Source: Candidatus Pacearchaeota archaeon UBA73
Lineage (GTDB): Archaea > Nanobdellota > Nanobdellia > Pacearchaeales > GW2011-AR1
Length of the DNA stretch: 64,000 nt
Direction of reading: 5' to 3'
NCBI GenBank assembly: GCA_002496015.1
Contig: DAIF01000014.1
Coordinates: forward strand, 891-64,890
Part shown: piece by piece, positions 6,602 to 52,816 of the stretch
How positions within the stretch are numbered: position 1 is the first letter of the stretch
How the letters are laid out: each line of letters starts with the position of its first letter
Position numbers and translations under genes: made by a program
The notes under the pieces: generated by a model
The model's input: the letters and a program-made list of their open reading frames with translations, nothing else
Databases searched by the model: none
Told to the model about the DNA's origin: nothing

Positions 6602-7552
6602 TTGATGAAGAAGAAAACTCGACCTAGACAACACGCAAGAAAAGCAGCAAGATTTTGCAGCATAAGGAGAGACCGTAACACTTATGTTGCCCGAGAAGAA
6701 TTCAAAGACCCCCTGCGGGGAGGCAAGCGTCCGGAAGACTTCCAAAAAGTAATTCCCGGAGAACAAATTTTCAGTGTGATTAGAGGAATTTTACGGGAAG
6801 GAAGAAACTATCTAATAGACACGTGCGCGCTGGAAGTCCCCAGAAAAAGTCTGTTTAAAGACTGCTCGGAACTAACGAATTACGCGGACAATGAAGCATA
6901 CCGAGCCGCAGCAGACCAGATGTGTCAGGAAATGAGAAAGTGTTCAGATTTTTGGGGAGAATTACTAACAAGAAAAGATGTGTTTATTCTCCCGGAGGTC
7001 GCTGAAGAAACAAGAAGATACCAAAGGATACTAAACTCCCATGCAAAGAAACTAAGAACTCGTGGCCTAAGACGAAAGCTTCTGGAGCCTGTCCACAGTT
7101 TAGTTAATAGTTTGGACTCTAATTCTTCCAGATTAGTCGACACAGGATTGCTGTCCGATCCCGTGATACCCAGAATAATGGAAATCCTAAGAGCCACTTC
7201 ACCTAGATACAGAAAACCTTTACCCTACACTGGCCAGAAGATAATCAGCTTCGCGATAGCATACGGCTTATCAAATGGTGGGACCCAAATCATAATAACC
7301 AGGAACCGCGCGATAAGAGAAGCGATGATTAATTTAAACGAAGACCTCGCGTCGGGAAGAAGGCATATCGATCTCTCAGATTTATGCCAAAGCTTTGAAC
7401 AGTTTAAAGTAATCCATAAAGTACTTCGCGCATTTCCTCCTTTCATATCAGATTATACTTTATGCATTGATGGGAATGATTTTCTCCGCGACTCGCCCTA
7501 CCAAAGAGATAGAAACACTCTACCTGCAACGACAAGTGCGGCAGCAGGATAG
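6602..7552 (+). CDS. Hypothetical protein
   Basis: A 316-aa ORF with a basic N-terminus and no assignable motif. Confidence 0.4.
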   Translation: MMKKKTRPRQHARKAARFCSIRRDRNTYVAREEFKDPLRGGKRPEDFQKVIPGEQIFSVIRGILREGRNYLIDTCALEVPRKSLFKDCSELTNYADNEAYRAAADQMCQEMRKCSDFWGELLTRKDVFILPEVAEETRRYQRILNSHAKKLRTRGLRRKLLEPVHSLVNSLDSNSSRLVDTGLLSDPVIPRIMEILRATSPRYRKPLPYTGQKIISFAIAYGLSNGGTQIIITRNRAIREAMINLNEDLASGRRHIDLSDLCQSFEQFKVIHKVLRAFPPFISDYTLCIDGNDFLRDSPYQRDRNTLPATTSAAAG

Positions 7553-8514: not shown

Positions 8515-8648
8515 AGCTCTGTCCGAAGTTTTGATTTTTTCTAAAATTTGGATGGTGGGGGTGGAGTGGCTGCGAGTCGGGTTTTTCCTCGTAGAGGAAA
8601 TGTTAGTGGGGATTTGAAAAATCAAAACATACTAACTACGGACAGAGC
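8515..8648. mobile_element. MITE-like repeat, family A copy 1 (about 134 bp), with terminal inverted repeats AGCTCTGTCCG.../...CGGACAGAGC
   Basis: It is about 90% identical to 14698-14883 apart from an internal indel. The ends are inverted repeats, each containing TTTTGATTTTT / AAAAATCAAAA. Confidence 0.7.
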
Positions 8649-8652
8649 CCGC

Positions 8653-10569
8653 TCACTCCATCGGCGTCCCGCCAACCCGCGACCGCCCCGACATCTGCCC
8701 GCCCAATTCCTTTGGCATCCCGCTGAATCCTCCACCATACATAGAGAAATGCTGCTCGGGCAGCATCGTGCCATATCCATAAAAATAACCGCCGGAAGTC
8801 GCATACGCCTGATTCCAATACGGAGACATCTTCATCGAATATATCGGGCTGCCGAAAGATTTCAATGACTGCGCAAAAGGCGTTTGATTCCCAAAAGCCT
8901 GCGGTCCAAACCAATTTCCAGTTTCAATAATCTGCTTTATTTCTCCCATTCGTTTATTGTATTTCGCAATCGCTTCGTATTGTTTCTTCATATTAACATT
9001 TCCCATCCCCATAGGCAGCTCTGTATGTTCCATTCCAAAGTTATCAGAAAGATGTATCTTGTTCACAAACTTCCCGACCGTCTCCGCTTCCTTAGCCAAT
9101 TGCTCGTCTTCATATCCAAATTTACGAAGCATATTTATATGCCCCACATCCCACGTGACGCCAATCAGTTTCTCGGCTTGCCTTTTCGCATCACCCTCGG
9201 ACAAGTGTTCTTCCTTCATCAATTTCTCCTGTAGCTTCTTCTGTGATTTCTCGACAATCTCTCTCAAATCTTCCGCCCTGGCCAATCCGCTCCCCGCAGG
9301 AGGATTCTCAACACTGACAATCGGAGCAGAATCCTTAAATTTTTTATAAGAATTAAACGCAACATTCGCAAAAGTTTCCGAAGACTTTTCTATTCCAAAG
9401 TTCCTCAACGGAGTTAGCGTGCTGGGAGCATCAATTGATCTCAAGACATTAACCCCTTTAACCAAAGTATCTGACAGATTAGCAAGATTGACAGGATCCT
9501 CAATATTCGGAACAAGATTTTTTATTTCGTGCTTGAATTTCTTAAGTTTATCCAGGTCATCTTCTCGCCCGCTCTTCTCGGCAGCAATATAAGCTTGATT
9601 ATATAATCTCTGAAACGCCTGATAAGCATCCCTCAGATAAATATCCCCGTGCGCGAGTTCTTGCAACTGTTTCTCTACAACGAGCTTAAACGGCGCGCCA
9701 ACCGCCTCCAGCACCTTCTGCACATCCCGCCCCTTAAGATAATTTTTATACAACTCAAGCCACTGTTCTTCATTTGTATTCTCTTTCAGCCCCCTATCAA
9801 GCTTCTCTCCTTTAAGCACGCCACTCACTATTGATTGTCCTTGGTACGCATGAAAGGCACAGTTCTGCAACTGGTTAAACCATGTATCCTTGTTTTGCTT
9901 CTCAATCGCCGCCTTTATCGTGTCCCTCTGTTGATCAATACTACCAATCTTGCCATTGCTCTCCATTAAAAGATTCGGCGTCAGAGGCAAAGATTGGAAT
10001 TGGCCGTCATTTGAAACAACCCAAAATTCTTTAATTATTTCCTTCTTCTCCTTTTTCCCGGTCTCAGGATTCACAACCTCATCCAGAATTTTTGTTTCAG
10101 GATTCGGCAAGCCATTGCTTGAATGAAATGTCACAACAAGATTTCCCTTCGGATCCATCTTGTGCGCTCGCTCAACTGCCTGCCACATCTGCCTTTCTGA
10201 TTCTTCCCTATGGGCTTCGTTCCAACCCTGTCTCGTAACTCCGGTTGGCTCAACCAGTGGCCCGTGAAAAGTCAAATCAATCCCAACTAATTTTTTCAAT
10301 CGATGTATCTCTTCCAGATGCGGATCGGGAACGGTCTCCCAAGTCGCAGCAGTAACGCCGGAAACTTCAATTGTTTTAGCCCCAGTATTCAATTTGTCAG
10401 AAATGGCTTTTAGCTGATTAGCCGTTCGAGGATCCGACGGCAACCCGAAGTTCGAAGTCGAAACCCTGTACTGCGGAAACAACCCCGTAGAAAACTCGCT
10501 GGCATAATCCGGATTCAACCCATAATCCGCTCCAGCATAAAATGTATTTCCGTAACCATCTTTTCCCAT
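8653..10569 (-). CDS. Large hypothetical protein: xylose-isomerase/AP-endonuclease-2-like TIM barrel split by a helical insertion of about 280 aa, with a G/Y/S/M-rich C-terminal tail
   Basis: The N-terminal part (TIEVSGVTAATW...LTFHGPL...VVTFHSSNG) and the distal part (VTWDVGHINM...KIHLSDNFGMEHTELPMGMGNVN) together resemble one TIM barrel. The middle is coiled-coil-like, and the final 80 aa is low-complexity GGYFYGYG...GGGFSG. Confidence 0.45.
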   Translation of the reverse strand: MGKDGYGNTFYAGADYGLNPDYASEFSTGLFPQYRVSTSNFGLPSDPRTANQLKAISDKLNTGAKTIEVSGVTAATWETVPDPHLEEIHRLKKLVGIDLTFHGPLVEPTGVTRQGWNEAHREESERQMWQAVERAHKMDPKGNLVVTFHSSNGLPNPETKILDEVVNPETGKKEKKEIIKEFWVVSNDGQFQSLPLTPNLLMESNGKIGSIDQQRDTIKAAIEKQNKDTWFNQLQNCAFHAYQGQSIVSGVLKGEKLDRGLKENTNEEQWLELYKNYLKGRDVQKVLEAVGAPFKLVVEKQLQELAHGDIYLRDAYQAFQRLYNQAYIAAEKSGREDDLDKLKKFKHEIKNLVPNIEDPVNLANLSDTLVKGVNVLRSIDAPSTLTPLRNFGIEKSSETFANVAFNSYKKFKDSAPIVSVENPPAGSGLARAEDLREIVEKSQKKLQEKLMKEEHLSEGDAKRQAEKLIGVTWDVGHINMLRKFGYEDEQLAKEAETVGKFVNKIHLSDNFGMEHTELPMGMGNVNMKKQYEAIAKYNKRMGEIKQIIETGNWFGPQAFGNQTPFAQSLKSFGSPIYSMKMSPYWNQAYATSGGYFYGYGTMLPEQHFSMYGGGFSGMPKELGGQMSGRSRVGGTPME

Positions 10570-10641
10570 TCATAAAATAAGAAAAACCTTTATTTAAAGT
10601 CTGCGATAAATAAGTTCTGTTGAAGAATCAGAAACAAACAG

Positions 10642-11145
10642 TTAAATTTCCCAAGCATATCTCTTCGTCTTCCTGTGCCCGTCGGCAGATTCCATTCCGG
10701 TAGAATATTTCTTCTCGTCTTCCTGTCTCAACGAAGATTCTATCCGATTTGCCTCAGGATAACCGTTGGCTTGCGCACCCGTCGCAAAATCTCTTCCTAC
10801 TCCAACCGAACGAAGAGTCTGACCAGATTCGATATTCTCTGAGAGTTTATATTTCGGTCTGTTAGCATCATCCCCCATCCTTCTGCCAACATCATAAAGA
10901 TGAGCCGTAGGCGCTTCAGTTGTTGCCTCTTCGCGGGACGTTCTTCTAACAGGCACATCCGCAACAGCCCTCATTGGTCTGATGCCGTTTTCCACGGGTT
11001 GAAACCCTGTTCCCGCAGAGACCATCTCTGCTGCAGACTCGCTCTTAGTCAGCTCGCGGATTTCCTTGTCACCTTCAGATTCTCGCTTTATCTCTCGGAT
11101 TATCTTAACCTTATCCTTAATCTCCTTTATCTTCACATTTTTCAT
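10642..11145 (-). CDS. Hypothetical protein, charged and probably disordered
   Basis: A 167-aa ORF rich in E/K/R with no motif. It lies in the same orientation between two large unknown genes. Confidence 0.3.
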   Translation of the reverse strand: MKNVKIKEIKDKVKIIREIKRESEGDKEIRELTKSESAAEMVSAGTGFQPVENGIRPMRAVADVPVRRTSREEATTEAPTAHLYDVGRRMGDDANRPKYKLSENIESGQTLRSVGVGRDFATGAQANGYPEANRIESSLRQEDEKKYSTGMESADGHRKTKRYAWEI

Positions 11146-11175
11146 ATCAGAAAGAGGTCAAACAACTATATAAAT

Positions 11176-12726
11176 TTAAAGATTTATCGTCGGAGGAAAG
11201 GCAGGCATATCGTGCGCCTTCTTGTAAGTATCATAAATCTTCCTGCAATTCAACTTTGCCACAAGTATTGCCTGAGAACGAATTACTTCCTCCCAGAAAC
11301 TATCCTTCTTCAATCCCTTTGATTTATCAACCTTCTCCTCTTTCTTAGCAAATTCAAACAACGCAGAGAATGGATTCACATCATCACTGGGCTTAGAGGG
11401 TTCATTTGCCTTGCTCCCGCTCCAATTTATCTCTTTAGCATCACTCAGAAACTCGTCAATATCGTTCTTCATTTGCTCGATACTTTCAGTTGTCGCCCCT
11501 TCTATCATAGCAAAAACATCCCCGAAGTCGTCCTTGTCTATTTCAGCTTTCAAAACCGCAAGTTCATCCTTATTCAATGCAAACCCGGTAAAAGTCACTT
11601 CAACTCGTCCCCTAAAAGAATAACCTCCCTTCTGATCGCTCCTATCAGGAATACTCCTAAACTTAAATTCTATCAAAGTCATCGGAATGTACTCTCGAAG
11701 ATTCATCGACAAAACGCTCTTTGGCAACTCTCCCGTCGCAACATCTCTCTTAGGATCATATTTCCCTTGAGCCAGAATAACAAGTTCAAACACAGCAGTA
11801 TTGAAAGCATTAACTATATCTGGGTTCCATCTCGTGTCTCCTCCCGCGTTTTGCTCCAAGAACTTGGCTGCTCTGAAATACGGCTTCGCCCATCGCGCAT
11901 ACACCTTTAACGAATTTACCTGGCTCCTTAAATAAGCCCTTTCAATCTCATATCTCTTGATTAACTCTCTCTCAGATTCCTCAACCCACTTCAAATATTC
12001 CGAAACTCTCTGCTCAAGGATTCTCTTGACCCTATCGTTTAAATCCAGATTCTTCACATCTTCAAGTGAGTTAACGACAAAAAACGCATCCCTAAGTGTC
12101 ACATAATCGAAATTCTGGCTTAAACCCGCGATACTGGCGTTTCCCCTCCTCAAATCCACATTATCTATCCATATCTGTTTCAACGAAAGGACAGCAGCAT
12201 TACGCGTCCTTGGATCGCCCGAACGCAGTTCTTCATACTGCCTCAATCTCAACTTGAACTCCTTCAAATCATAAATTATCTGTATTATTGATTTCGTCAA
12301 GACTCCCGCGGTCTGCATCATCTTCATCGCTTCCTCCTGCATTCTCGTAGCTCTTCCTTGCATTTCAGCAAAGAACCCGCTCCCGGCAGAAGAAACAAAA
12401 TTATCAACAAGCTTCTCTGCCTTCCCATACAGATAATTTACATAGTCAAGTATCCAAAAATAAACTGGCTCAAGCGACTGCGAAAACGCATCATAAACCA
12501 ATGTATGCTGCTCAATAGGTGATTTTATGCCTTCTTTCTTAAGCGCGCCCTTTGTAGCCATAACATGAAGAACGTCGTGATAGCTAACTTCCTTAAGCTT
12601 CGCAACCTCCGCCGCCTTCAAATATCCTCCGCTCTTAAGGGCTTTATTCACATCGCCAACTTTCTCAGGATCGCAATAAACTTTAGGATTTATCGCTGCG
12701 ATTAAATTCTTTACGTCAACTGCCAT
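11176..12726 (-). CDS. Large hypothetical protein (516 aa), mostly alpha-helical
   Basis: A long ORF with uniform coding statistics and no signal peptide, TM segment, P-loop or other recognisable motif. Confidence 0.45.
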   Translation of the reverse strand: MAVDVKNLIAAINPKVYCDPEKVGDVNKALKSGGYLKAAEVAKLKEVSYHDVLHVMATKGALKKEGIKSPIEQHTLVYDAFSQSLEPVYFWILDYVNYLYGKAEKLVDNFVSSAGSGFFAEMQGRATRMQEEAMKMMQTAGVLTKSIIQIIYDLKEFKLRLRQYEELRSGDPRTRNAAVLSLKQIWIDNVDLRRGNASIAGLSQNFDYVTLRDAFFVVNSLEDVKNLDLNDRVKRILEQRVSEYLKWVEESERELIKRYEIERAYLRSQVNSLKVYARWAKPYFRAAKFLEQNAGGDTRWNPDIVNAFNTAVFELVILAQGKYDPKRDVATGELPKSVLSMNLREYIPMTLIEFKFRSIPDRSDQKGGYSFRGRVEVTFTGFALNKDELAVLKAEIDKDDFGDVFAMIEGATTESIEQMKNDIDEFLSDAKEINWSGSKANEPSKPSDDVNPFSALFEFAKKEEKVDKSKGLKKDSFWEEVIRSQAILVAKLNCRKIYDTYKKAHDMPAFPPTINL

Positions 12727-12799
12727 TTCATTTCACCTCTTTAGATTATATTTTATAAAATACACATCGAAAGTTAATAAAGATTTCGCGTCAAGTGCC

Positions 12800-12915
12800 C
12801 TGTCCAAAGTCTGTTGATTTTTCCAAACTTTGGGGGGATGGAGGGATGGTCGGGGCGAGCATGTTACGCGCCAGTAATGCAAAAGAATCTAGGCGCGTGG
12901 CTGCAAGCAGAGATT
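12800..12915. repeat. Partial or degenerate copy of the family A MITE-like repeat
   Basis: CCTGTCCAAAGTCTGTTGATTTTTCCAAACTTTGGGGGGATGGAGGGATGGTCGGGGCGAGC aligns with the 5' half of copies 8515-8648 and 14698-14883. Confidence 0.5.
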
Positions 12916-13235: not shown

Positions 13236-13724
13236 CTACCCTGGCGCTGGCGTACCCCCCGGTGGTGCATATTGAGTGCAATCAATTGTCACTGGAGGAC
13301 AAACCGCTCGTTCACCAGCATCACCCGTCACAATACCTGCAACACTAACTCTTCGAGGTGTCCCTGTCCCTGTCACCGTCCCTTCAAAGGTAACTGTTCC
13401 CAATGATGGACCAGCCGACTCTTCCATACTAGCAACACTAGCACCTGCCTCATTAACAACATCTGCAACTATAGACTGTGCTTCCCCACGCATATTTCTA
13501 ACTCGTACAGTCACGCTATCTGGAGACCCTACAGTCCAGATACAAGAAACTGGCTGAACATCAACACTAAAGCACTTCGTCCTCAAGTTAGTCTCCGAAG
13601 CAGCAGTATCAAAAGTAGGTCTCAAGAAACCCCAAACAATAGCAACAGCAGCAAGCGCTAAAAGCACTATAAGCACCGTAGCGACAATGTTACTCAATCC
13701 TCTTTTGTTTTTTCTTGTTATCAT
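13236..13724 (-). CDS. Class III signal peptide (archaeal type IV pilin-like) protein, paralog 2
   Basis: The N-terminus KNKRGLSNIVATVLIVLLALAAVAIVWGF is a basic stretch plus G plus a hydrophobic helix, as in prepilin-peptidase substrates. An SD-like GAGGT lies 6 nt upstream. It starts 10 nt after paralog 1. Confidence 0.7.
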   Translation of the reverse strand: MITRKNKRGLSNIVATVLIVLLALAAVAIVWGFLRPTFDTAASETNLRTKCFSVDVQPVSCIWTVGSPDSVTVRVRNMRGEAQSIVADVVNEAGASVASMEESAGPSLGTVTFEGTVTGTGTPRRVSVAGIVTGDAGERAVCPPVTIDCTQYAPPGGTPAPG

Positions 13725-13734
13725 TTTTTACCTC

Positions 13735-14193
13735 TTAATTGCAAGCCACCGCCACAGACTCTGGGCAAGTCTCTGTATTACCACTACCATCTCTAACCCT
13801 TGCAGCTACTCTTGCTATAAAGGGCGAAGCCGTCCCTATATCATTAACCTGAGTAGCCTGAGACCCTAGAGCTGTCGTTGGAGCAATTCCTTGAGAAACA
13901 TAAGTAATCCCATTATCATCTTCCACTACAGCAGCCACAGAATCCAAGGTAACCTCTGTAGGTACACTCGTCTTTAACTGATAAGCAACATTAGCAGTTG
14001 CTCCAGAAAGACTACACTGTGTTGGCTCAACAGTAACCAAGAAACATGCATTCCTCAATGAAGTTTGGGAAGCGGCATTATCAAAAGTAGGTCTCAAGAA
14101 ACCCCAAACAATAGCAACAGCAGCAAGCGCCAAAAGCACTATAAGCACCGTAGCGACGATGTCACTCAATCCTCTTTTGTTCATCATGTCCAT
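13735..14193 (-). CDS. Class III signal peptide (archaeal type IV pilin-like) protein, paralog 1
   Basis: Its N-terminus NKRGLSDIVATVLIVLLALAAVAIVWGF is nearly identical to paralog 2 at nucleotide level over about 110 nt. The C-terminal domain is unrelated. A TTTATAA element lies about 20 nt upstream of the start. Confidence 0.7.
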   Translation of the reverse strand: MDMMNKRGLSDIVATVLIVLLALAAVAIVWGFLRPTFDNAASQTSLRNACFLVTVEPTQCSLSGATANVAYQLKTSVPTEVTLDSVAAVVEDDNGITYVSQGIAPTTALGSQATQVNDIGTASPFIARVAARVRDGSGNTETCPESVAVACN

Positions 14194-14210
14194 ATCTAAA
14201 AAAGACTTCT

Positions 14211-14217
14211 TTATAAA
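14211..14217 (-). promoter_or_regulatory. Putative TATA box for the pilin pair
   Basis: TTTATAA on the minus strand lies roughly 18-24 nt upstream of the ATG at 14193, which fits leaderless archaeal promoters. Confidence 0.3.
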
Positions 14218-14264
14218 TGTTTCGTTTTTTCAATTTTGAAAAATTACATTCGATTAAATTTTAT

Positions 14265-14345
14265 TTTTCGACGACGACTTTCACCACCCGCCCCGCCCCC
14301 AATCCCCTCCTCTTTTAATCTCCTCGCTCCTCGTCGCCAATCTCT
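14265..14345. repeat. Fragment of the repeat family G-rich core, reverse orientation
   Basis: The reverse complement GGGGATTGGGGGCGGGGCGGGTGG matches the GGGGCGGGATGATTGGGGTGG core found at 62465 and 41445. Confidence 0.35.
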
Positions 14346-14410: not shown

Positions 14411-15023
14411 CTAAAGCTCCCGCTCTAAATTAATTATCTCCGTCGTACTCCAAGTCCTGATCGCTCCTTGTTTCTTGAAATGTTCATCATCTGACCAAAT
14501 ACCATCGTTGGGAACAGAAAGAGCCAGCGCAACAAAAGGGACATCTTTCTCATCTACTTCCCCAATTATCTCTTCAGCTTCTTCCATTTTATGAGCATAC
14601 TTCTCTCTGTGAACAACTTCAATACTCTCTATCAATAAACCAAACAATGTCTCAAACTCCTCCTACGTCAATCCGGCTCTTTCAATTATTATTTTTCAGC
14701 TCTGTCCAGAGTTTTGATTTTTTCTAAAATTTGGATGGTGGGGCGGGTTAGCAAGGGCGAGCACGTTACGCGAGTGCAAAAGTTGATTAATTTCGAGCGT
14801 GGCTGCGAGCAGGGTTTTTCCTCGTAGAGGAAATGTTAGTGGGGATTTGAAAAATCAAAACATACTAACTCCGAAACAGAGCTGTTTTTTCATATTTTCT
14901 AATTTCAGAGATAAGTGTTTCAGGAGCATAAAGAATAAATGGCGAGTCAATAAGAAAATTTCGGGTCAGACCTTCCTTAAACATCCCTGAAAAGACAACA
15001 TTAGTATCAATGATAAAAATCAT
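14411..15023 (-). pseudogene. PIN-domain (VapC-like) toxin gene disrupted by a MITE insertion
   Basis: The N-terminal fragment (minus strand from 15023) reads MIFIIDTNVVFSGMFKEGLTRNFLIDSPFILYAPETLISEIRKYEKT and runs into the repeat, where it meets a stop. The C-terminal fragment (14647-14411) EEFETLFGLLIE...VPFVALALSVPNDGIWSDDEHF continues the alignment with the intact paralog at 15626-16033. Confidence 0.7.
14698..14883. mobile_element. MITE-like repeat, family A copy 2 (about 186 bp), inserted inside the PIN gene
   Basis: Its termini AGCTCTGTCC...GAAACAGAGCT are inverted repeats. The internal sequence matches 8515-8648 and 12800-12915, and the interrupted host ORF is visible on both flanks. 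Confidence 0.75.
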
Positions 15024-15434: not shown

Positions 15435-15629
15435 ATGAGTGAAATCAAAATAGAAATCCCTGAAGAACTGAAAAGAAAAATAGAAACCAAAATAGGCCTG
15501 ACTCTCTTAGTTAAAAGACTAGTCAAGCACCTCGAAGAAGAACAAGAAATGATAGACTGGTCCGTAAAACTCCAGAGAACTGCAAGAAAAGGCAGATACA
15601 GAAAGCTTAAAGAAAAAGGATTGATATGA
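15435..15629 (+). CDS. Antitoxin-like small protein (VapB-like)
   Basis: A 64-aa ORF (SEIKIEIPEELKRKIE) that overlaps the downstream PIN gene by 4 nt (ATGA). Confidence 0.5.
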   Translation: MSEIKIEIPEELKRKIETKIGLTLLVKRLVKHLEEEQEMIDWSVKLQRTARKGRYRKLKEKGLI

Positions 15630-16033
15630 AAATAGTGGCAGATTCAAACATTTTATTTACTTTCTTTTGGAAAGACTCATTTACAAAGGGCATTCTCGTC
15701 GACCAAAATTTTGAATTTTTCGCTCCAGAAATAGCAATTCACGAAATAAAAAATAACAAACAAGAAATAACCAAAAAAACAAAATCTTCCGAAGAAGAAT
15801 TCAATTCGTTACTTGGAGAGTTAGCTATCTTTGTAGAGTTTATTCCCCTCGACGAATACATTGATAAGGTTAGTGAAGCAGACGTGATATCTGACAAAGA
15901 TGATATCGATTTCATCGCTCTCGCCCTCAAATTAAACTGTGAAATATGGTCAAACGATCCTCATCTAAAAGAACAAAACAAGGTAAAGGTTTATACCACT
16001 TCAGAATTTATCCAACACATCGAACAATCTTAA
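15626..16033 (+). CDS. PIN-domain ribonuclease (VapC-like toxin)
   Basis: It has the MKIVADSNIL acidic start, a conserved D in DIDFIALAL, and an ATGA overlap with the upstream small gene. Confidence 0.7.
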   Translation: MKIVADSNILFTFFWKDSFTKGILVDQNFEFFAPEIAIHEIKNNKQEITKKTKSSEEEFNSLLGELAIFVEFIPLDEYIDKVSEADVISDKDDIDFIALALKLNCEIWSNDPHLKEQNKVKVYTTSEFIQHIEQS

Positions 16034-16037
16034 AAAA

Positions 16038-16343
16038 TCATTTATGCAAAAACCAAAACGAAAACAACTTTTCATTTTTATCGTCGAATTTTGCAAAACC
16101 AAATCTCTCGAACTGCACAACCGAATTTTCAGAAATTTGTTTCAGAGCCGGCTCACCCAACCCCGAAATCCATCTCCCATCCTCCATCAAAATCCGGACT
16201 TTCAAATTTTTATCTTCGGCAGGAAGCCAATGAATCATTTTCGCACCAAGTCTTGCATCAACTTCCTTAGAAAAAAACTTTTCGTTGTGATTTCCCATAT
16301 CGGCATTCTTGATATTTAATAAACATATATAAGAAACCTTCAA
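16038..16343 (-). other. Stand-alone paralog or gene fragment of the GluRS C-terminal (anticodon-binding) domain
   Basis: NLKVRILMEDGRWISGLGEPALKQISENSVVQFERFGFAKF...FWFLHK aligns with the C-terminus of the gltX product in this window (YVDVRIFMPNGNFINGFGDIGLKSLSVGELIQFERFGFCRL...FWFTHK). Confidence 0.5.
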
Positions 16344-16417: not shown

Positions 16418-17422
16418 CTACTGTTTATCTAAGAACTTGTCTATTTCCTCACTTAAGACCCCTACAGAATAAGATTTACGTTTATTGTCTTTAAGGATCT
16501 CCTGATCCATATCAGACATATCGTATATAGCAACACTCAAGCTATCCCCTATACCTTCTTCTATATTTTTCGGCACGCCTAGATCTAAAATTAAAACATT
16601 TCTTCTCATAGAAGATAAGTCTTCTCGTTTAATCGTTTTCTCATTTGAAGCAATACAAGTCAATATAATGTCTGCTTCTGAGATGATATGTTTAATATCA
16701 ACAAGATCAACCGCTACAATATCGAACATTTCGGCAAGCTGTTCTACTTTCGTCCTACTTCTTCCTGCAACAAAAATCTTTAAGGGAAATAGGCGAGAAA
16801 TCCTTTTGATCAGTTTTCTAGCCAGCATACCTGTGCCTATGATAAGAAAAGATGCATCATGAATAATATTAATCTTGTTCTTCGAGATTATTTCAATAGC
16901 CACATCTGCATAAGAAAAGAAACTTCCTCTCAGAGGATACTTTCTCTTTAAAGACGCGCTTTTCGTTATTACAACATCAAAGAATAAATCTAACTCTTTA
17001 TCTGTAAAGTTTCTTTCCTTGCAAGATTTGTAAGCAGATTTAACTTGCATAAAAATATCTCTCTCGCCCAATATAAAAGAGTCTAAACCGCAACAAAGTC
17101 GAATCAAATGCTTAGTTAAAGACTTCCCCGTAAATACTTCTACATTCAACTCCGTGACTTCATTAGGAATGGTTTCTTGGATTATCTCTCTGAGTAGTTC
17201 AGCGGAAAAAGAAATGCTTGGAAGATGAGAAACATAAAGTTCAAACCTATGACACGTAGCTATCAAAATAAAATTACTTCCTTTATATGCTTTTAATTTA
17301 GATAGAATTATTTCATAAAATAATTCCTCATTATCCCTAAACCACCCGTAGAGGTTATCTAATAAAAGCTTCGAAGTAATTCTATGATTAATGGACAAAC
17401 CAGTCAGCCTTCTACAACTCAT
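16418..17422 (-). CDS. hemA: Glutamyl-tRNA reductase-like protein (HemA family)
   Basis: The catalytic-Cys motif ATCHRFELY (canonical TCNRxEIY), ILGERDIFMQVK (canonical ILGExQI..QVK) and a Rossmann IIGTGMLARKL are present. The region is strongly AT-rich. Confidence 0.55.
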   Translation of the reverse strand: MSCRRLTGLSINHRITSKLLLDNLYGWFRDNEELFYEIILSKLKAYKGSNFILIATCHRFELYVSHLPSISFSAELLREIIQETIPNEVTELNVEVFTGKSLTKHLIRLCCGLDSFILGERDIFMQVKSAYKSCKERNFTDKELDLFFDVVITKSASLKRKYPLRGSFFSYADVAIEIISKNKINIIHDASFLIIGTGMLARKLIKRISRLFPLKIFVAGRSRTKVEQLAEMFDIVAVDLVDIKHIISEADIILTCIASNEKTIKREDLSSMRRNVLILDLGVPKNIEEGIGDSLSVAIYDMSDMDQEILKDNKRKSYSVGVLSEEIDKFLDKQ

Positions 17423-19613: not shown

Positions 19614-21272
19614 TTATTTATGAGTAAACCAAAATTCATAAACAACTTTTTTATTTTCTTTCTCTTTTTTATCAAGTCTACAAAAACCAAATCTCTCAAA
19701 TTGAATTAATTCTCCAACAGAAAGACTTTTCAGACCAATATCCCCAAACCCATTAATAAAATTTCCATTTGGCATAAATATTCGTACATCTACATAATCG
19801 GAAACCCATTGAATTCTCGGAACATCTTTGTTATCCACTGTAGTAAAAGTTGCATTTGGCAATCGATTTAATTGGATGTTAAAAAGATGCAAGAGCCTTA
19901 TTTCCTTGCCAGAGAATTCTTCAAAATCCTCACGGGATATATAAATCTGACCAACTTTAAGTTTTCTGGTATCATCAAAGTCCGGATGAACTTTAAGTTC
20001 AACTTCAGATACATTAGGACGATTATTAACTATTAATCCTATGGGATTCTGAACAAAAAAGTACCTCTTTGCCCGCGCATCGATTATTTTTCGGTTAATA
20101 GACGCGATCATATCGAAATCAAGATTTACTTGATGTCTAGACAGTCCAACTTGCTCAACAAGTCCGTAAATTGCTTCTTTCGTTATTCCCCTCCTCCTTA
20201 ACGCTCTCAGAGTGATAAGCCTCGGATCATCCCATCCGACTAGCTCACCAGATTCGACTAGCTCCCGAATTTCTCTGCCCTGAGTAGTAAAATCAATGAC
20301 ATTAAATCGACCATACTGAATAATCTTTTGCTTTCGAAGTCCAAGCAAATCTTTAATTTTATCCTGAAGTTCAATTCTCAGATCAAATTCATTACTTCGT
20401 AAAATAAGAGTCACACCCATCAAACTATCCTCGATAGGATTATAAAAATCATACATGGGCCAAACTTTATATTTATCCCCTTGTCTGTAATGCTTAACAG
20501 GTATTGCGCGAAACAAAACCGAATCCCTCATAACATGATTCTTGCTTTTCATATTTCCTTTTATCCTCAAAACCGCTTCACCCTTAGTATATTTTCCATC
20601 AACAAACTTTTTCCATTCATCTAAATTATTCTTCCTCGAATTTCTTCTACAGTCACAAGCTTGTCCCTTGTGTCGTAAATCCTGCATTTTATTCCTATCA
20701 CAAAAGCACATATACGCACGATTCATCCCGATAAGCTTCCTTGCATAATCATATAAAATTTCCATATCATCAGAGATAAACTTTACTCCGTCAACTTTTA
20801 TACCTAAATAATTTAAAACATCTTCTTTCATTGCATCAACATACTCCTGCGAAACCTTTTCAGGATTTGTGTCTTCGAATCTCAAAAAACACTTCCCATT
20901 ATATTTTCGAGCATATTGATAATTCAAGAGAAATGAAATAGCATGTCCTATATGGGCGTACTTAGAAGGCTCCGGTGCAATTCTGGTCACCACTTCATTT
21001 AACCCAGAAATATCGATGTCGGGCAGCATCTTATCCACAACTTCTCTTTCTTTGACAAATCCCTTAAACTTTTCAAATTCCTTTTCTCTTGCAGAAACAG
21101 ACATCTTATTTACTTCATCAACAATCTTCTGCAGCGAAGGCATTATCTTACCAATGTCTTTCTTATCCAACCCGTGATTAAACAACTTAGGCAAAACCTT
21201 ACCGACAACCGCTCTTCCATATTCAATCGCGTTCTTCAAAGCGTACGCCCACATTTCATTTTCCAGTTTCAT
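19614..21272 (-). CDS. gltX: Glutamyl-tRNA synthetase (archaeal GluRS/GlxRS type)
   Basis: Class I HIGH motif (PSKYAHIGHAISFLLN), an MKSKN (KMSKS-like) loop, and a C-terminal beta-barrel anticodon-binding domain. Confidence 0.85.
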   Translation of the reverse strand: MKLENEMWAYALKNAIEYGRAVVGKVLPKLFNHGLDKKDIGKIMPSLQKIVDEVNKMSVSAREKEFEKFKGFVKEREVVDKMLPDIDISGLNEVVTRIAPEPSKYAHIGHAISFLLNYQYARKYNGKCFLRFEDTNPEKVSQEYVDAMKEDVLNYLGIKVDGVKFISDDMEILYDYARKLIGMNRAYMCFCDRNKMQDLRHKGQACDCRRNSRKNNLDEWKKFVDGKYTKGEAVLRIKGNMKSKNHVMRDSVLFRAIPVKHYRQGDKYKVWPMYDFYNPIEDSLMGVTLILRSNEFDLRIELQDKIKDLLGLRKQKIIQYGRFNVIDFTTQGREIRELVESGELVGWDDPRLITLRALRRRGITKEAIYGLVEQVGLSRHQVNLDFDMIASINRKIIDARAKRYFFVQNPIGLIVNNRPNVSEVELKVHPDFDDTRKLKVGQIYISREDFEEFSGKEIRLLHLFNIQLNRLPNATFTTVDNKDVPRIQWVSDYVDVRIFMPNGNFINGFGDIGLKSLSVGELIQFERFGFCRLDKKEKENKKVVYEFWFTHK

Positions 21273-21346
21273 AAAATCACCAAGAAAAGGAGTTATTTAA
21301 TCCTTACCACAGCAATCTTTATATAGAAACGCAGAGAAAATAAACA

Positions 21347-22849
21347 ATGCGTGAAAAAGGAGTTCTAGAGTTAGCGGCTCAAAACGGCGAAGCCCTGACT
21401 TTCGATGATGTGCGATTAAAAACAGATTTCAGCGGAGTGATGCCTGATGACGTTTCTCTTCATTCAAGATTTTCCAGAAACGTAGGACTAAAGATTCCAA
21501 TCGTAAGCGCTGCAATGGACACCGTTACAGAATACAAACTAGCAATAACTCTCGCAGAACTCGGAGGCATTGGAGTGATACACCGAAGTCTCTCTCCGGA
21601 TGAACAAGCTTCCCAAGTTGCAAGAGCAAAACATTACTTAAACGGCAAGATTGGAGCCCCCATCACTGTCCGCACAAGCGACACAATAGAACAAATTCTA
21701 AATATGAAAGCAAGAAGAGGTTTCAGCTTCAACAGTTTCCCGGTAACAGATAATGAAGGGCGGTTAGTGGGGATATTGACCGGAAACGACTTCACATTCT
21801 GTATTAATTCTGCACTTACCGCAGAACAAGTCATGACTCGTAATCCTCTAACAGCAAACCCCGATACGACAGTAGAGCAAGCCTACGCATTAATGACCGG
21901 GCAAAAAAAGAAAGCTCTCCCGCTAATAGACGAAAAAGGACAAATAAAAGGAATGTATGTTTTCAATGATGTAAGAAGAATAATCCATGGCGAAGCCACG
22001 CATTTCAACATAGATTCGAGGGGACAGTTAAGAGTGGGCGCAGCGATAGGCGTCGGAGAAGAAGCTCTCCTCCGAGCAGAAAAACTTGTAGCAAGAAACG
22101 TTGACGTTTTGGTAATTGACACTGCTCACGCAGATTCTCGCCCGGTTTATGAAACTTTAAAAGAACTCAAGAAAACCTACCCTTCCTTAGACGTAGTAGT
22201 CGGTAATGTTTCAGAACCAGAATCTGTAAAAAGATTAGCCGATGCAGGAGCTGATGGAATTAAGATAGGACAAGGTCCCGGCTCAATATGCACTACAAGA
22301 ATTATCGCAGGAGTCGGCTGTCCACAAGTGTCCGCGATTTATCAATGCGCAAAAATAGCAGACGACTTTGGAATTCCTCTTTGTGCTGACGGCGGACTAA
22401 AATATTCCGGTGATATCCCAATCGCAATTGCTGCGGGCGCCCATTCTGTTATGATGGGAAGTATGCTTGCAGGAGTTGACGAAGCTCCGGGAGAAATTGT
22501 TTTTGTAGACGGGGGACAATACAAAAGCTACCGAGGCATGGGTTCTTTGGGAGCAATGGCTGAAAGCCCAAGTGCAAGAGAAAGATATTCACAAACCGAA
22601 AGCGGCAAAGACAGGTTAGTTCCTGAAGGAGTGGAGGGCTTAGTTCCTTACAAAGGAAAACTCGCACTCGTAATACATCAATACATCGGCGGCCTGCGCA
22701 GAGGTATGGGCTACGTCGGAGCAGAAAACATTGAAGAACTAAGAGAAAAGGGAGAGTTCATGAGAATAACACAATCTGGAATGAGAGAATCTCGCCCCCA
22801 CGATATAAAACTAACAAAGGAGCCGCCAAACTATCCGGTAGGAAGGTAA
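21347..22849 (+). CDS. guaB: IMP dehydrogenase
   Basis: [12 protein letters not shown] region, a tandem CBS insert, and the catalytic loop [21 protein letters not shown]. Confidence 0.9.
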
Positions 22850-35098: not shown

Positions 35099-36466
35099 AT
35101 GAAAAAAGCAGGCTTGTTGTTGCTTTGCATAGTGTTGTTTTCTGTGAGCACTTTAGCCAGTCCTGACCTCGAGGTGGAAAAGGTGAATCTGAGGAATGTC
35201 GCGGTCACGGAGATTGGCAATCCAGTTTATTATGACCTTCTAATAAAAAATCTTGGTGGGGAAGATCAGTTCAGGATATTCACTTTGGTTGGAGTCCAGA
35301 TTGAACCGAGCGAATATGTAACTTTGCCGCCGGGAGAGACGAAGATAAAGATAGAAGCTAATCTGGGGAATAAGATTCTTAAAGAAAGGAAAGGTCTTCT
35401 TTCTTTTGAATATCAGATAAAGGGGCTAGAACGCGAGCTTTACAAGGACAAGCTACTTGTCAATATTGTTTCTTTGAAGGACATCCTTAATATTAATTAC
35501 CGCGATTTTCATCCAGCAGATAATCTGATAGAGGTCCACATCAACAATTCCGCGAATGTCGAGCTTAACAACTTAACTCTTATTCTTGATTCGGTTTTTT
35601 TCCGTGAATCTATTCCATTGGAGTTAGCACCATACGAGAACAAGTCTTTTTCAGTTTCGGTCAATCTGGACGGCAATGAGAAACTTGTCGCGGGCCCATA
35701 CATTGTTTCTGCAACGATTGTGACTGGCAGGGAAAACGTCAATCTCGATGGAATAATAAATTTCCTTGAGCGTGAAGGGACTTCGGTTGATGAGTCAACA
35801 CAGGGGTTAATAATCAGGACGAAGATTGTAACTAAGACAAACAAGGGCAATACGCCCGTGACGGCAGAGGTTAGTCTTACGAAAGATGCTATATCCAGAT
35901 TATTCACAACTCATTCTATTGAGCCAGTGTCGACGAGTCGCGAGGGTTTTTTTGTCGAGTATGTCTGGCGAAAGAGCCTGAATCCGGGCGAATCACTTAT
36001 CGTGACCTCGAGGACGAATTATACAGTGCCTTTCTTTGTAGCACTTTTTATAGTGGCAGTCGGAGTGCTTGTTAAGTTCTATTATTTAAAAGCAGTATAT
36101 ATCAGGAAGAGGGTCTCGCTTGTCAGGACGAAGGGCGGCGAGTTTGCGTTGAGGGTTGTTCTAAAAGTGAAGGCGAGAAAGAGTGTTGAGGGCTTGCAGT
36201 TGATAGATTCTCTACCTGGGATGACCAAGCTTTATGAAAACTTCGGGAAACAGCCGGATAAAATAGAGAAAGATGCCCGAAGATTAGTCTGGAACGTGGG
36301 GCATTTACGAAGAGGAGAGGAGAGAGTCTATTCTTATGTGATGTATTCAAAGCTTAAAGTTGTCGGGCGGCTTGAGCTGCCGCAGGCGTTTGCTATATTC
36401 AAGAAGGAAGGGAAGGTGGGAGAGGTTTATTCCAACCGTACGTATTTTGCGATTGAGGGGAGTTAG
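35099..36466 (+). CDS. Secreted or surface protein with an N-terminal signal peptide and a C-terminal TM anchor
   Basis: MKKAGLLLLCIVLFSVSTLA signal, a beta-rich ectodomain with CARDB-like segments, and TM VPFFVALFIVAVGVLV near residue 300. Confidence 0.45.
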   Translation: MKKAGLLLLCIVLFSVSTLASPDLEVEKVNLRNVAVTEIGNPVYYDLLIKNLGGEDQFRIFTLVGVQIEPSEYVTLPPGETKIKIEANLGNKILKERKGLLSFEYQIKGLERELYKDKLLVNIVSLKDILNINYRDFHPADNLIEVHINNSANVELNNLTLILDSVFFRESIPLELAPYENKSFSVSVNLDGNEKLVAGPYIVSATIVTGRENVNLDGIINFLEREGTSVDESTQGLIIRTKIVTKTNKGNTPVTAEVSLTKDAISRLFTTHSIEPVSTSREGFFVEYVWRKSLNPGESLIVTSRTNYTVPFFVALFIVAVGVLVKFYYLKAVYIRKRVSLVRTKGGEFALRVVLKVKARKSVEGLQLIDSLPGMTKLYENFGKQPDKIEKDARRLVWNVGHLRRGEERVYSYVMYSKLKVVGRLELPQAFAIFKKEGKVGEVYSNRTYFAIEGS

Positions 36467-37068
36467 GATTTGGAGACTATTAATATGTCTTCATCTGTTC
36501 CGATTGATTTTCTAGCCTTATCAAAAATATCTTTTCTTATTGCTTGGAATGGAATGAGTTTATCAAAACTGGGGTTGTGAACATAAATGTTTTCTTGGTC
36601 ATATCCGACGATTGGCAGAAAATGGCCGCGATATTGTCCAGTGTTTTTATTTTCAATTACATTCCAATCTATTAGCACAATCGGCAGACTGTTTTCAGTT
36701 ACGAATTTTAGGATTCCATTTAATTCTAATGAAACTTGCTTCATCTTTACCTTAAGTTCTTCTGCTCTTTTGAGCCAGTTGTCAAACTTGTTTTGGTCCA
36801 TAGAGTCGTGTTCTTTATAATAATCAAGTTCGCTATTTTCTTCATTGTAAGCCAGAGTTTTTGTGAATAGTTTTGTGTTATAACCCAGCGCTGCGGAAGA
36901 GACTGCTAGTTGGATAGTGTTAGTTCCTTCTTTTCCAGTTCTCCCTGTTTCTTTTTCAAAAATTTCTATTCCCAAGTCTTTATCTAAGAAAGCTACAGCC
37001 ATTCTCAGTGCGGACGGTCCGCAATTGTAAAAGGTTGTTTGTTTAAAAAAAGGCACGTCTAATTTCAT
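36463..37068 (-). CDS. C39-like papain-fold cysteine peptidase
   Basis: FFKQTTFYNCGPSALRMAVAFL (Q...CG catalytic Cys region) and HFLPIVGYD (His). I chose the start at MKLDVPFF, 2 nt after the cdc48 stop. Confidence 0.55.
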   Translation of the reverse strand: MKLDVPFFKQTTFYNCGPSALRMAVAFLDKDLGIEIFEKETGRTGKEGTNTIQLAVSSAALGYNTKLFTKTLAYNEENSELDYYKEHDSMDQNKFDNWLKRAEELKVKMKQVSLELNGILKFVTENSLPIVLIDWNVIENKNTGQYRGHFLPIVGYDQENIYVHNPSFDKLIPFQAIRKDIFDKARKSIGTDEDILIVSKS

Positions 37069-37069
37069 T

Positions 37070-52285: not shown

Positions 52286-52816
52286 TTAACCCATGTGAAT
52301 CGGCTTTGAGGAATTATAAAGGGGCTTTTTTCCGTAAACTGCAACGCCTAAATTATAATGCATTTTTCCGGTGTTACTCTCTATGTCATGCCATCTTTTT
52401 TTTAGTTCTCTGAATGTAAGATATGTTCTTCTTATTGAGGACGGGTCTTCGAAATACATTTTATTTTTGCTGTATCCTATCGCGACCACATAATGTCCGT
52501 CGTCCCAGTTATTCTCCCAATCAACATTATTCTTATTTGCCCAAGCTTGAATAAGGAGGATTACTGGAATGTCTTTATCTAAATATTTTTTTACTTCAGA
52601 GACTGTCATATATTGGGCGGTGCATTTTAAGCCGTATTTTCTTAACACTTTCAGGATTCCTTTTATGGGTGTGCCCGAGTTAGTTGTTTTCGCAATTTTC
52701 ATTATCCTATCACCGCGGACGTCGATTCCATAATAAACAAGGATAGATTGGGTTGCTGTTGAACCGCAGTCATGATCGAATACTTGCCTCAACTTCGGAA
52801 AGTTTAGCATCTTCAT
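52286..52816 (-). CDS. C39-like papain-fold cysteine peptidase (second copy)
   Basis: QVFDHDCGSTATQSILVYYG (Q..CG), HYVVAIGY (His). The start overlaps the infB stop. Confidence 0.55.
   Translation of the reverse strand: MKMLNFPKLRQVFDHDCGSTATQSILVYYGIDVRGDRIMKIAKTTNSGTPIKGILKVLRKYGLKCTAQYMTVSEVKKYLDKDIPVILLIQAWANKNNVDWENNWDDGHYVVAIGYSKNKMYFEDPSSIRRTYLTFRELKKRWHDIESNTGKMHYNLGVAVYGKKPLYNSSKPIHMG

Follow-up and report, generated by a model that had tools for sequence, protein, structure and literature searches.

A conserved DPANN operon of two type IV pilin-like genes with a signature of segmental gene conversion

Antigenic variation in the pilE/pilS system of Neisseria relies on silent copies, truncated at the 5' end, as donors of variable 3' segments. 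Among the archaea, the adhesion pilins PilA1–PilA6 of Haloferax volcanii have a conserved H-domain in common (Esquivel et al. 2013, as cited in PMC4371748), and the part of PMC4371748 that deals with these pilins describes the domain as needed for pilus assembly. The same source tabulates archaeal processing motifs, KGIS, RALS and KGQI being among those given in its table. Segmental concerted evolution has been described in prokaryotic tandem duplicates, namely the archaeal mtrA-1/mtrA-2 genes and bacterial tandem flagellin genes, and a survey of concerted evolution includes only seven archaeal genes, all of them from methanogens and none encoding a pilin (PMC4632066, PMC6053082).

The locus described here lies in a 64-kb stretch of DNA, referred to as the window. 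With a probability of roughly 80%, we read it as a conserved DPANN two-pilin operon of ancient paralogues in which a 5' segment was recently converted from gene B onto gene A, and not as a variation cassette. Gene B, the first of the operon, occupies positions 13735–14193 of the minus strand (152-aa ORF), and gene A, the second, positions 13236–13724 of the same strand (162-aa ORF). The ORF of B begins at ATG 14193; start-codon conservation across loci places the conserved start at ATG 14187, which is probably a leaderless start giving MMNKRG↓LSD... (the arrow marks the predicted cleavage site). The predicted N-termini are MMNKRG↓LSDIVATVLIVLLALAAVAIVWGFL for B and MITRKNKRG↓LSN... for A. Upstream of B, at 14210–14224 on the minus strand, is the BRE/TATA element cGAAACATTTATAAA, whose 3' end is 22 nt upstream of ATG 14187 and which is near-identical 5' of gene B in nine related loci; from the archaeal BRE/TATA consensus it is predicted to act as a promoter. 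The B–A intergenic spacer measures 10 nt (13725–13734, minus strand) and has a GAGGT Shine-Dalgarno-like motif at 13734–13730, while in all A/B-type loci the spacer is 0–20 nt long. A short spacer with such a motif indicates that B and A are co-transcribed. Judged from these sequence elements, B followed by A forms a single operon behind a conserved archaeal promoter.

The results of profile searches place both products near known archaeal pilins. The TIGR02537 profile (archaellin/type IV pilin N-terminal domain) gave 21.7 bits for A and 18 bits for B, that is, one above and one just below its cut-off of 20 bits. For B and A the UpsA profile (NF046073) gave 26.7 and 19.9 bits, both far below its equivalog cut-off of 130 bits, so that neither is assigned to the UpsA pilins. 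Apart from two unrelated marginal matches, Pfam holds no family for A or B at E ≤ 10, and no Pfam match was obtained for any of the three pilin-like proteins (A, B and the product of 54811–55251). PF07790/DUF1628, the Pfam archaeal pilin N-terminal family of H. volcanii PilA1–6, was likewise unmatched. As in class III signal peptides, both proteins begin with a short charged leader that ends in K or R and then G or A before the cleavage site, and continue with some 20 or more hydrophobic residues that include no charged ones. The RG↓LS site agrees with the processing motifs in the table of PMC4371748. A simple FlaFind-like regular expression matched neither A nor B because of the N or D at +3 and was excluded from the evidence. 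The ORFs, the TIGR02537 scores and the motif thus bear out the two adjoining minus-strand genes with class-III-signal N-termini that a sequence-only reading of this DNA had proposed.

That reading had also asked for structure prediction of the mature domains, and AF2 gave the same fold for both. In A (pLDDT 92.4) a helix at residues 10–53 is followed by a β-sandwich, and in B (pLDDT 91.7) the helix spans residues 8–52, again followed by a β-sandwich; both models have the "lollipop" shape of a long N-terminal α-helix and a β-rich globular domain. Foldseek matched B to 8fk7_A, the archaeal type IV pilus subunit of Pyrobaculum calidifontis (E = 6.5e-4 over 148 columns), and also to FlaF, and it matched A to the P. 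arsenaticum pilus 6w8u. When the family profile was compared with solved structures, the best sequence match was 8fk7_A (E = 0.017). The structural matches of A and B to solved pilins are weak (TM 0.44–0.48), generic Ig/FN3 domains being equal or better. Taken together, these data support A and B as archaeal class-III-signal (type IV pilin-like) proteins. A scan of about 40 window proteins found no prepilin peptidase (Peptidase_A24), no PilB-type ATPase (T2SSE) and no PilC-type platform (T2SSF), and the flanks of the relatives' loci L001, L002, L003, L005, L007 and L008 contained neither the ATPase nor the platform. A separate pilin-like gene is located at 54811–55251 on the minus strand, with the class-III-type N-terminus MEKRG↓VSLVVASVLL... 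Its product reached an hhalign probability of 92.8, confined to the first 50 residues, and 14.9 bits with TIGR02537, under the cut-off. This gene, previously noted for its similar N-terminus, does begin in a class-III-like way; it has no copy of the 102-nt DNA module described below and stands outside the converted pair.

BLASTP aligned A with B over nearly their full length (E = 3e-32), mostly owing to the module, and outside the module the two are 29% identical. Across 53 family members, four cysteines are invariant or nearly so and the hydrophobic helix is extremely conserved throughout the clade. The mature domains had been described as lacking detectable similarity, a description that does not survive the 29% identity, the four shared cysteines and the common predicted fold. 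At least nine related genomes of Pacearchaeota, Woesearchaeota and Nanoarchaeota have the B–A pair with its order and synteny preserved. Orthologues of A were found in L001, L002, L003, L005, L007, L008, L010 and L024, and L001, L002, L003, L005, L007 and L008 have all or part of one gene order: GluRS, B and A, followed by genes for proteins of about 515, 165 and 640 aa. In a tree of the mature domains, A and B are split with a bootstrap of 200/200. Each mature domain groups with its own A or B orthologues, so the duplication is ancient and involved no exchange of domains; of the earlier proposal of recent gene conversion, or duplication with domain swapping, the conversion stands and the swapping falls. 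The downstream 516-, 167- and 638-aa proteins were considered as pilus components and gave no informative family or structure match. GluRS and PheRS are just as syntenic, so the linkage of these downstream proteins is not evidence of function.

The near-identical 5' ends of A and B were confirmed, with coordinates about 7 nt away from those first given: positions 13608–13709 and 14080–14181, both read on the minus strand, are mismatched at 3 of 102 nt. The copy in B (14080–14181, minus strand) comprises 34 codons, NKRG↓LSDIVATVLIVLLALAAVAIVWGFLRPTFD, and would be the donor. The copy in A (13608–13709, minus strand) carries B-type residues and, from its position in the tree of module DNA, would be the recipient. 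Class III cleavage is predicted in B between codon GGA (14172–14170) and codon TTG (14169–14167), and in A between 13698 and 13697. The module has two copies within the 64-kb window, with none expected from 100 shuffles, and an exact-match scan of metagenome contigs with its 41-nt core returned no matches and hence no variants at the population level. DNA identity begins within the coding region, at AACAAAAGAGG; the roughly 10 nt upstream that had been thought identical are not, since the upstream sequence is the promoter in B and the intergenic spacer in A. At fourfold-degenerate sites, A and B differ at 0 of 18 positions in the module versus 14 of 23 in the remaining gene (Fisher p = 2.9e-5), which means that the N-terminal identity is indeed above that of the rest of the genes, a point on which the sequence-only reading had staked itself.

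We then have the modules of the relatives for comparison. Per 102 nt, the paralogous modules are mismatched at 3 positions in the window, 2 in L001, 4 in L024 and 12 in L008, and at 17 in L002, 21 in L005, 23 in L003, 24 in L007 and 28 in L010. Most relatives have the same module protein sequence in both paralogues despite 17–28 nt differences, and where the amino acid is the same, the codon differs in 2 of 33 cases in the window versus 49 of 119 in the genomes without conversion (p = 6e-5). The A module of the window shows R3 and T32 (RPTFD), both B-type residues; the corresponding residues of other A orthologues are K and M/A/V. The tree of module DNA places window A and L001 A inside the B clade, in disagreement with the mature-domain tree. 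The orthologous modules of the window and L024 are 23–24 nt apart, whereas the paralogues within each genome are 3–4 nt apart, and both L024 paralogues carry the derived residues LLSLAAVV...RPVFDTTSS. Within the tract, paralogues are thus closer than orthologues, synonymous sites included, and the trees are incongruent, as in concerted evolution. The 2–3 differences in the window and L001, together with the B-type residues in A, point to a recent B-to-A conversion confined to the signal-peptide/assembly-helix segment. L024 and L008 show independent homogenisations of the module. Conversion may still have continued after the window and L001 split, for which a single site speaks: module position 69 is T in both window copies and G in both L001 copies.

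Evolutionary rates differ sharply between the module and the exposed domains. Between the window and L001, dN/dS is 0.72 in the mature domain of A and 0.95 in that of B; for the module, dN is 0. Of six neighbouring genes that could be compared, five have dN/dS of 0.04–0.26, and the sixth, a gene of unknown function at 6602–7552, has 0.57; the pooled nonsynonymous:synonymous contrast between the mature domains and those five neighbours gives p = 2e-11. The dS values are 0.08–0.13 for the module and 0.12–0.24 for the rest of the A and B genes, and those of the mature domains are on par with neighbouring genes. Hence the suggestion of a variable surface holds in the form of fast point substitution in the exposed domains, and fails in the form of cassette variation. 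The high dN/dS could reflect relaxed constraint instead of diversifying selection.

The sequence-only reading had taken the pair for a pilin variation cassette of the Neisseria pilE/pilS type, in which antigenic or phase variation arises by shuffling variable mature domains onto a constant 5' module. The constant 5' end with diverging 3' parts, the fast evolution of the mature domains and the repeats and toxin-antitoxin insertions around the pair all suit such a system. Two of the three MITE-like flanking copies reported earlier were confirmed, at 12797–12910 (70% identity) and 14698–14883, while for the claimed copy at 14265–14345 shuffled sequence gave alignments just as good. L001, a close relative, has the pair at the same place with no MITE-like repeats in its flanks, so the repeats do not define a mobile or cassette unit, and a pilin unit bracketed by them is ruled out. 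Moreover, A and B are both complete, belong to one operon with one conserved promoter, and A has its own Shine-Dalgarno-like motif; the module search of the window, which detects module-bearing copies, returned these two complete genes and no silent, promoterless or 5'-truncated donor. The mature domains are stable orthologues in a fixed order in at least nine genomes, and their separate A and B clades (200/200) and neighbour-like dS give no sign of cassette replacement or of mosaics from segment exchange. The converted tract, finally, is the constant end and not the variable one. A cassette is therefore extremely improbable here. A recent whole-gene tandem duplication followed by extremely rapid divergence outside the N-terminus would also yield tandem paralogues with high mature-domain dN/dS, and the pairs of L021 and L022, in which identity reaches about 140–180 nt and in L022 extends into the upstream region, could be such lineage-specific duplications and not conversions. 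For the window this history is scarcely credible, as its A and B group with their respective orthologues of distant genomes (200/200) and saturation is seen at fourfold sites outside the module, where 14 of 23 differ.

Selection on the nucleotide sequence itself, acting through mRNA structure, a translation-initiation ramp or a regulatory site and involving no recombination, would be in keeping with an identity that spans the region near translation initiation and with modules that are near-identical between the window and L001 as well (2–3 of 102 nt). The same peptide is encoded in L002, L003, L005, L007 and L010 with the paralogue differences given above, however, and 41% of same-amino-acid codons differ in those genomes, so synonymous sites are free to vary. 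The module dS between the window and L001 is in line with that of the rest of the genes, and the module of L024 has 23–24 differences from the window and yet is common to both L024 paralogues, which makes such selection very improbable as the cause. A different doubt concerns the products, which might be class-III-signal surface proteins that do not form pili, such as bindosome-like, FlaF/FlaG-like or membrane-anchored Ig-domain adhesins. Pointing that way are one homologue named "FlaG/FlaF family" by JGI, weak matches to BasC and the soluble domain of FlaF, and a window free of pilus machinery. We consider it unlikely, since the best full-length structural and sequence matches are to the filament-forming archaeal pilins 8fk7 and 6w8u, and the helix is extremely conserved across the clade, as expected of a packing element in a filament core. 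Pilin genes unlinked to the machinery also have a precedent in H. volcanii pilA1–6, as described in the part of PMC4371748 on these genes.

We therefore favour a conserved two-gene operon for two paralogous archaeal type IV pilins of a Pacearchaeota/Woesearchaeota/Nanoarchaeota type. Each precursor begins with a leader that is very short and positively charged, followed by a class III signal-peptidase site (K-R-G↓L-S). The next part, a hydrophobic helix about 45 residues long, would form the filament core, and an Ig-like β-sandwich with four conserved cysteines would form the exposed surface. In the lineage of the window and L001, a short non-reciprocal recombination from B onto A has probably overwritten, in recent times, about 100–120 nt of A, exactly the cleavage site and the assembly helix, and so wiped out the synonymous differences that separate A and B in other genomes; homogenisation of the same kind has arisen independently in other lineages. 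The constancy of the helix at the protein level probably keeps the copies similar enough to recombine. With one shared processing and assembly module, both products could be served by one peptidase and one assembly platform and be packed into one filament, while their exposed domains diverge fast. On the broader proposition, that this segment of about 100 nt has been repeatedly re-homogenised across the DPANN clade and is maintained by selection for co-assembly, while diversifying selection where the host is met drives the exposed domains apart, we are evenly divided.

A and B define a previously unannotated pilin family, for which Pfam has no model and almost all members of which are labelled "hypothetical". 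Pacearchaeota, Woesearchaeota and Nanoarchaeota have kept it as a two-gene operon whose promoter is strongly conserved. These uncultivated archaea presumably live in attachment to hosts, which makes A and B good candidates for an attachment filament and concrete targets for cryo-EM, antibodies and metaproteomics. The pair may also serve as a clean case, provided by nature, in which conversion keeps two filament subunits matched at their assembly interface even as they diverge on the surface.

Compared with known systems, A and B resemble H. volcanii PilA1–PilA6 in being paralogues with an almost fully conserved hydrophobic N-terminal domain and divergent exposed domains, and in being unlinked to assembly genes, here within the window (PMC4371748, in its part on these pilins). 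That part makes no mention of DNA-level homogenisation by gene conversion for PilA1–PilA6. Unlike the H. volcanii pilins, A and B have no PF07790/DUF1628 match, and they form two genes in one tight operon instead of six dispersed ones. With the UpsA/UpsB and AapA/AapB pilins of Sulfolobales they share adjoining paralogous genes and sites of K or R, then G or A, cleaved before a hydrophobic residue and S, as given in the relevant part of PMC4371748, and B has the weak NCBIfam match to UpsA, far under its cut-off. The A/B pair is not embedded in a pilus-assembly operon, however, and the four-cysteine β-sandwich is specific to its DPANN family. As in mtrA-1/mtrA-2 and the tandem flagellins, paralogues within a genome are closer than orthologues between genomes, conversion is recurrent and affects part of the gene, and the products join homo- or heteropolymers (PMC4632066, PMC6053082), which for A and B is a prediction. 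In the limited literature consulted, neither an archaeal pilin nor any DPANN gene is reported to evolve in concert. The A/B tract differs from the mtrA and flagellin cases in being only about 100 nt long, and its conversion is episodic, being missing in about half of the sampled lineages. Type IV pilin genes and gene conversion are common to this locus and to Neisseria pilE/pilS, but the arrangement is reversed: neither copy is truncated, conversion affects the constant 5' segment, and the variable parts are stable orthologues. No new mechanism is indicated, and with the variation cassette removed the A/B locus is a two-pilin operon of the ordinary archaeal kind that shows segmental concerted evolution.

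Two adjacent minus-strand genes in the window encode pilin-like proteins, namely gene B (13735-14193, 152 aa) and, downstream of it, gene A (13236-13724, 162 aa). They share a 102-nt module (34 codons), located at 13608-13709 in A and 14080-14181 in B, both on the minus strand, with mismatches at 3 of the 102 positions. The sequence-only reading had thus correctly noticed the near-identical 5' ends, placing them about 7 nt away. The near-identical stretch lies within the coding region, running from AACAAAAGAGG (N-K-R-G) to the GAT of ...RPTFD, and the sequences upstream of the module differ between A and B. No third copy was found across the 64-kb window, nor is any expected by chance. The same reading regarded the mature domains as unrelated, which proved wrong. 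In fact, the BLASTP alignment of A and B spans almost the entire protein length, with 29% protein identity outside the module, and four cysteines (C51, C61, C142 and C149, numbered as in A) are fully or almost fully conserved among 53 aligned family members. Moreover, AlphaFold2 predicts with high confidence (pLDDT 92.4 and 91.7) a common architecture, in which a single long helix at the N-terminus (about residues 10-53) leads into a β-sandwich.

Upstream of gene B lies a putative BRE/TATA promoter, cGAAACATTTATAAA (14224-14210, minus), whose sequence is nearly unchanged across nine related loci. The 3' end of this element is 22 nt upstream of the conserved ATG (14187 in the window), the arrangement expected where an archaeal BRE/TATA promoter drives a leaderless or near-leaderless mRNA. 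Because this geometry points to 14187, the annotated start of B at 14193 is probably two codons too long. The spacer between B and A is 10 nt, containing GAGGT, and measures 0-20 nt in the relatives; both genes would be co-transcribed from this putative promoter.

The N-termini of the two proteins, MMNKRG followed by LSDIVATVLIVLLALAAVAIVWGFL in B and MITRKNKRG followed by LSN... in A, begin with a short basic leader, have glycine at -1 and continue as an uncharged hydrophobic stretch. The presumed cleavage site is similar to the experimentally characterised archaeal processing sites KGIS, RALS and KGQI tabulated in PMC4371748. NCBIfam model TIGR02537 (archaellin/type IV pilin N-terminal domain; cut-off 20 bits) gave 21.7 bits for A and 18 bits for B, UpsA and BasC were matched weakly below threshold, and no Pfam model matched either protein. 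When the family profile was compared with solved structures, the top sequence match was 8fk7_A (E = 0.017), a chain of the archaeal type IV pilus of Pyrobaculum calidifontis, and Foldseek recovered the same chain with the B model (148 columns, E = 6.5e-4, TM 0.44-0.48) as well as the soluble domain of FlaF. Taken together, the N-termini, the TIGR02537 scores, the processing site and the sequence and structure matches to 8fk7_A identify A and B, as proposed before, as archaeal type IV pilin-like subunits; no curated model exists for their family. Homologues are confined to MAGs named Pacearchaeota, Woesearchaeota, Nanoarchaeota or "archaeon", and the window carries the archaeal markers archease, RtcB, aIF5B-like GTPase and CDC48, which supports a DPANN origin. 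No prepilin peptidase, PilB-type ATPase or PilC-type platform protein was found among the approximately 40 window proteins scanned or in the fetched flanks of relatives, and thus we can only infer that A and B are processed and assembled into filaments. There is precedent for pilin genes unlinked to their machinery in pilA1-6 of Haloferax volcanii (PMC4371748).

We obtained related loci via the homologue list and by scanning genome and metagenome collections. All six loci from the homologue list (L001, from a close relative, L002, L003, L005, L007 and L008) show a B-type gene and then an A-type gene; glutamyl-tRNA synthetase precedes the pair, immediately or separated by a small insertion, and genes for conserved proteins of about 515, 165 and 640 aa come after it if the contig is long enough. 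The same order was seen in L010 and L024, for which the pair itself was viewed. Signatures are visible by eye in the A type (...VRARNMAGEA...LLGTVTF...VAGIVSD) and the B type (...VAYQL...VVVVEDD...ARVAARV.DG), and a neighbour-joining tree of mature domains separates every A from every B with bootstrap support of 200/200. The conserved order, the signatures and this split all indicate that the A/B duplication is old and that the mature domains are stable orthologues, not swapped cassettes. The domain swapping and pilin variation cassette proposed from the sequence were therefore rejected: both genes are complete, and the homogenised segment is the constant part, the opposite of the Neisseria-type pilE/pilS scheme.

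As a protein, the module (34 residues) hardly varies from gene to gene or from genome to genome, and its DNA is usually free to drift between paralogues, with mismatches of 17 (L002), 21 (L005), 23 (L003), 24 (L007) and 28 (L010) per 102 nt. The window (3), L001 (2) and L024 (4) are far more uniform, and L008 has 12 mismatches and a 57-nt identical run. Codons for the same amino acid differ in 2 of 33 cases in the window versus 49 of 119 in the unconverted L002, L003, L005 and L007 (p = 6e-5), and at fourfold sites of the window pair 0 of 18 differ in the module versus 14 of 23 outside it (p = 2.9e-5). The window and L024 modules differ at 23-24 positions between orthologues but at 3-4 between the paralogues of each genome, and both L024 copies carry derived residues absent elsewhere (LLSLAAVV...RPVFDTTSS). 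Judged from these comparisons, the pattern is what concerted evolution through interlocus gene conversion classically produces, as had been suggested for the 5' ends, and conversion has taken place independently in several lineages.

Selection at the nucleotide level could likewise keep two copies identical; we rejected it in view of the free synonymous variation seen in the other genomes. Nor is the pattern likely to be an assembly artefact, as the independent assemblies of the window and L001 both show it, with residual mismatches that differ. The direction of the conversion was B onto A, in an ancestor of the window and L001, because their A copies nest in the B clade of the module DNA tree and bear B-type residues (R at position 3 and T in RPTFD; other A genes have K and M/A/V). 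Module position 69, where the two window copies have T and the two L001 copies have G, is a single-site hint that conversion continued past their split. The pairs of L021 and L022 (7 and 3 mismatches), whose identity reaches 140-180 nt and in L022 also extends into the upstream region, may be younger lineage-specific duplications.

Regarding the surroundings, the pair had been described as flanked by MITE-like repeats; these are present at 12797-12910 and 14698-14883 and absent at 14265-14345, and in L001 the pair occupies the same place with no such repeats beside it. The 186-bp copy at 14698-14883 interrupts a PIN_2 toxin gene (14411-15023, minus), splitting it into the N-terminal 52 codons (14865-15023, minus) and a C-terminal part (14411-14647, minus; Pfam PIN_2 positions 63-128), and a second PIN_2 gene, intact and preceded by a small partner, is found at 15435-16033. 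A further copy at 8515-8648, with 94-96% identity to 14698-14883 and an internal deletion, adjoins the downstream side of the 638-aa gene described below; fragments are present in L001, L005 and L007. The intergenic positions directly before and after the pair are insertion hot spots whose content varies from genome to genome (window, L001, L002, L003, L007); among the insertions are toxin-antitoxin genes (PIN_2, PemK, VapB and ParE), small nucleotidyltransferases and a DUF4143/AAA_14 ATPase. Genes of about 516, 165 and 638 aa follow the pair wherever related contigs reach that far (window 8653-12726, minus; L001 10366-14427; also L002, L005, L007 and L008). Their proteins have no informative family match; the 516-aa protein shows marginal Zeta-toxin similarity (E = 0.023) and strong purifying selection (dN/dS 0.04, window versus L001), and the 638-aa protein a faint AP_endonuc_2 match.

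The glutamyl-tRNA synthetase (GluRS) locus is mosaic (window 16038-16273, 19614-21272 and 21099-21311 versus L001 5585-7279). Full-length window GluRS (tRNA-synt_1c) shares 43% protein identity with that of L001, versus 85-97% for flanking genes; its initial 170 or so coding nt and upstream sequence match L001 at 92%, and 16038-16273 is a 236-nt leftover of the L001-type 3' end (91% identity). The internal part of the original gene was apparently exchanged for a segment of about 4.8 kb, on which a glutamyl-tRNA reductase-like gene (16418-17422) is also located. The IMPDH gene (21347-22849; L001 3761-5263) has dS of about 1.0, versus 0.1-0.4 for most neighbours, a further sign of mosaic ancestry or recombination between otherwise close genomes. 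Two Peptidase_C39-like papain-fold proteins are encoded at 52286-52816 and 36463-37248, one immediately downstream of the aIF5B-like GTPase, near a third pilin-like gene.

Between the window and L001, neighbouring genes show 87-97% protein identity (dS about 0.1-0.4), versus 74% for the mature part of A and 82.5% for that of B. The dN/dS values of these mature parts are 0.72 (A) and 0.95 (B), against 0.04-0.26 in five neighbouring genes and 0.57 in an unknown gene at 6602-7552; in the module, dN = 0. With these ratios and the pooled nonsynonymous:synonymous contrast between the pilins and the five neighbours (p = 2e-11), the pilin surface changes fast by point substitution, consistent with an exposed, possibly host-facing structure; relaxed constraint and diversifying selection are both compatible with high dN/dS from two genomes. 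The second pilin of the tandem pair in L022 (3605-4792), from a distantly related Nanoarchaeota genome, matches its neighbour exactly over the N-terminal 57 residues and ends in a Laminin_G_3 (concanavalin-like lectin) domain (E = 1.9e-21). This pilin-adhesin fusion supports an adhesive role for the family. Some A-type orthologues (L002 10001-10594, L003 5992-6666, L007 4993-5679) bear C-terminal cysteine-rich extensions of 40-80 aa, e.g. CSPNLCGLCADSIDCGLASCAWSAGVCS, with no match in Pfam.

The closest functional parallel to the pair is PilA1-6 of H. volcanii, several pilins with a near-identical H-domain required for assembly (PMC4371748), and in gene organisation the pairs UpsA/B and AapA/B, of two pilins each, come closest. 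The mode of evolution matches that of tandem mtrA copies and tandem flagellin genes, where conversion is segmental and recurrent; the concertedly evolving archaeal genes reported in that survey number only seven, all from methanogens and none a pilin (PMC4632066, PMC6053082). The locus thus adds a new family to the archaeal pilins and a new example to the known cases of concerted evolution; the mechanism itself is already known.
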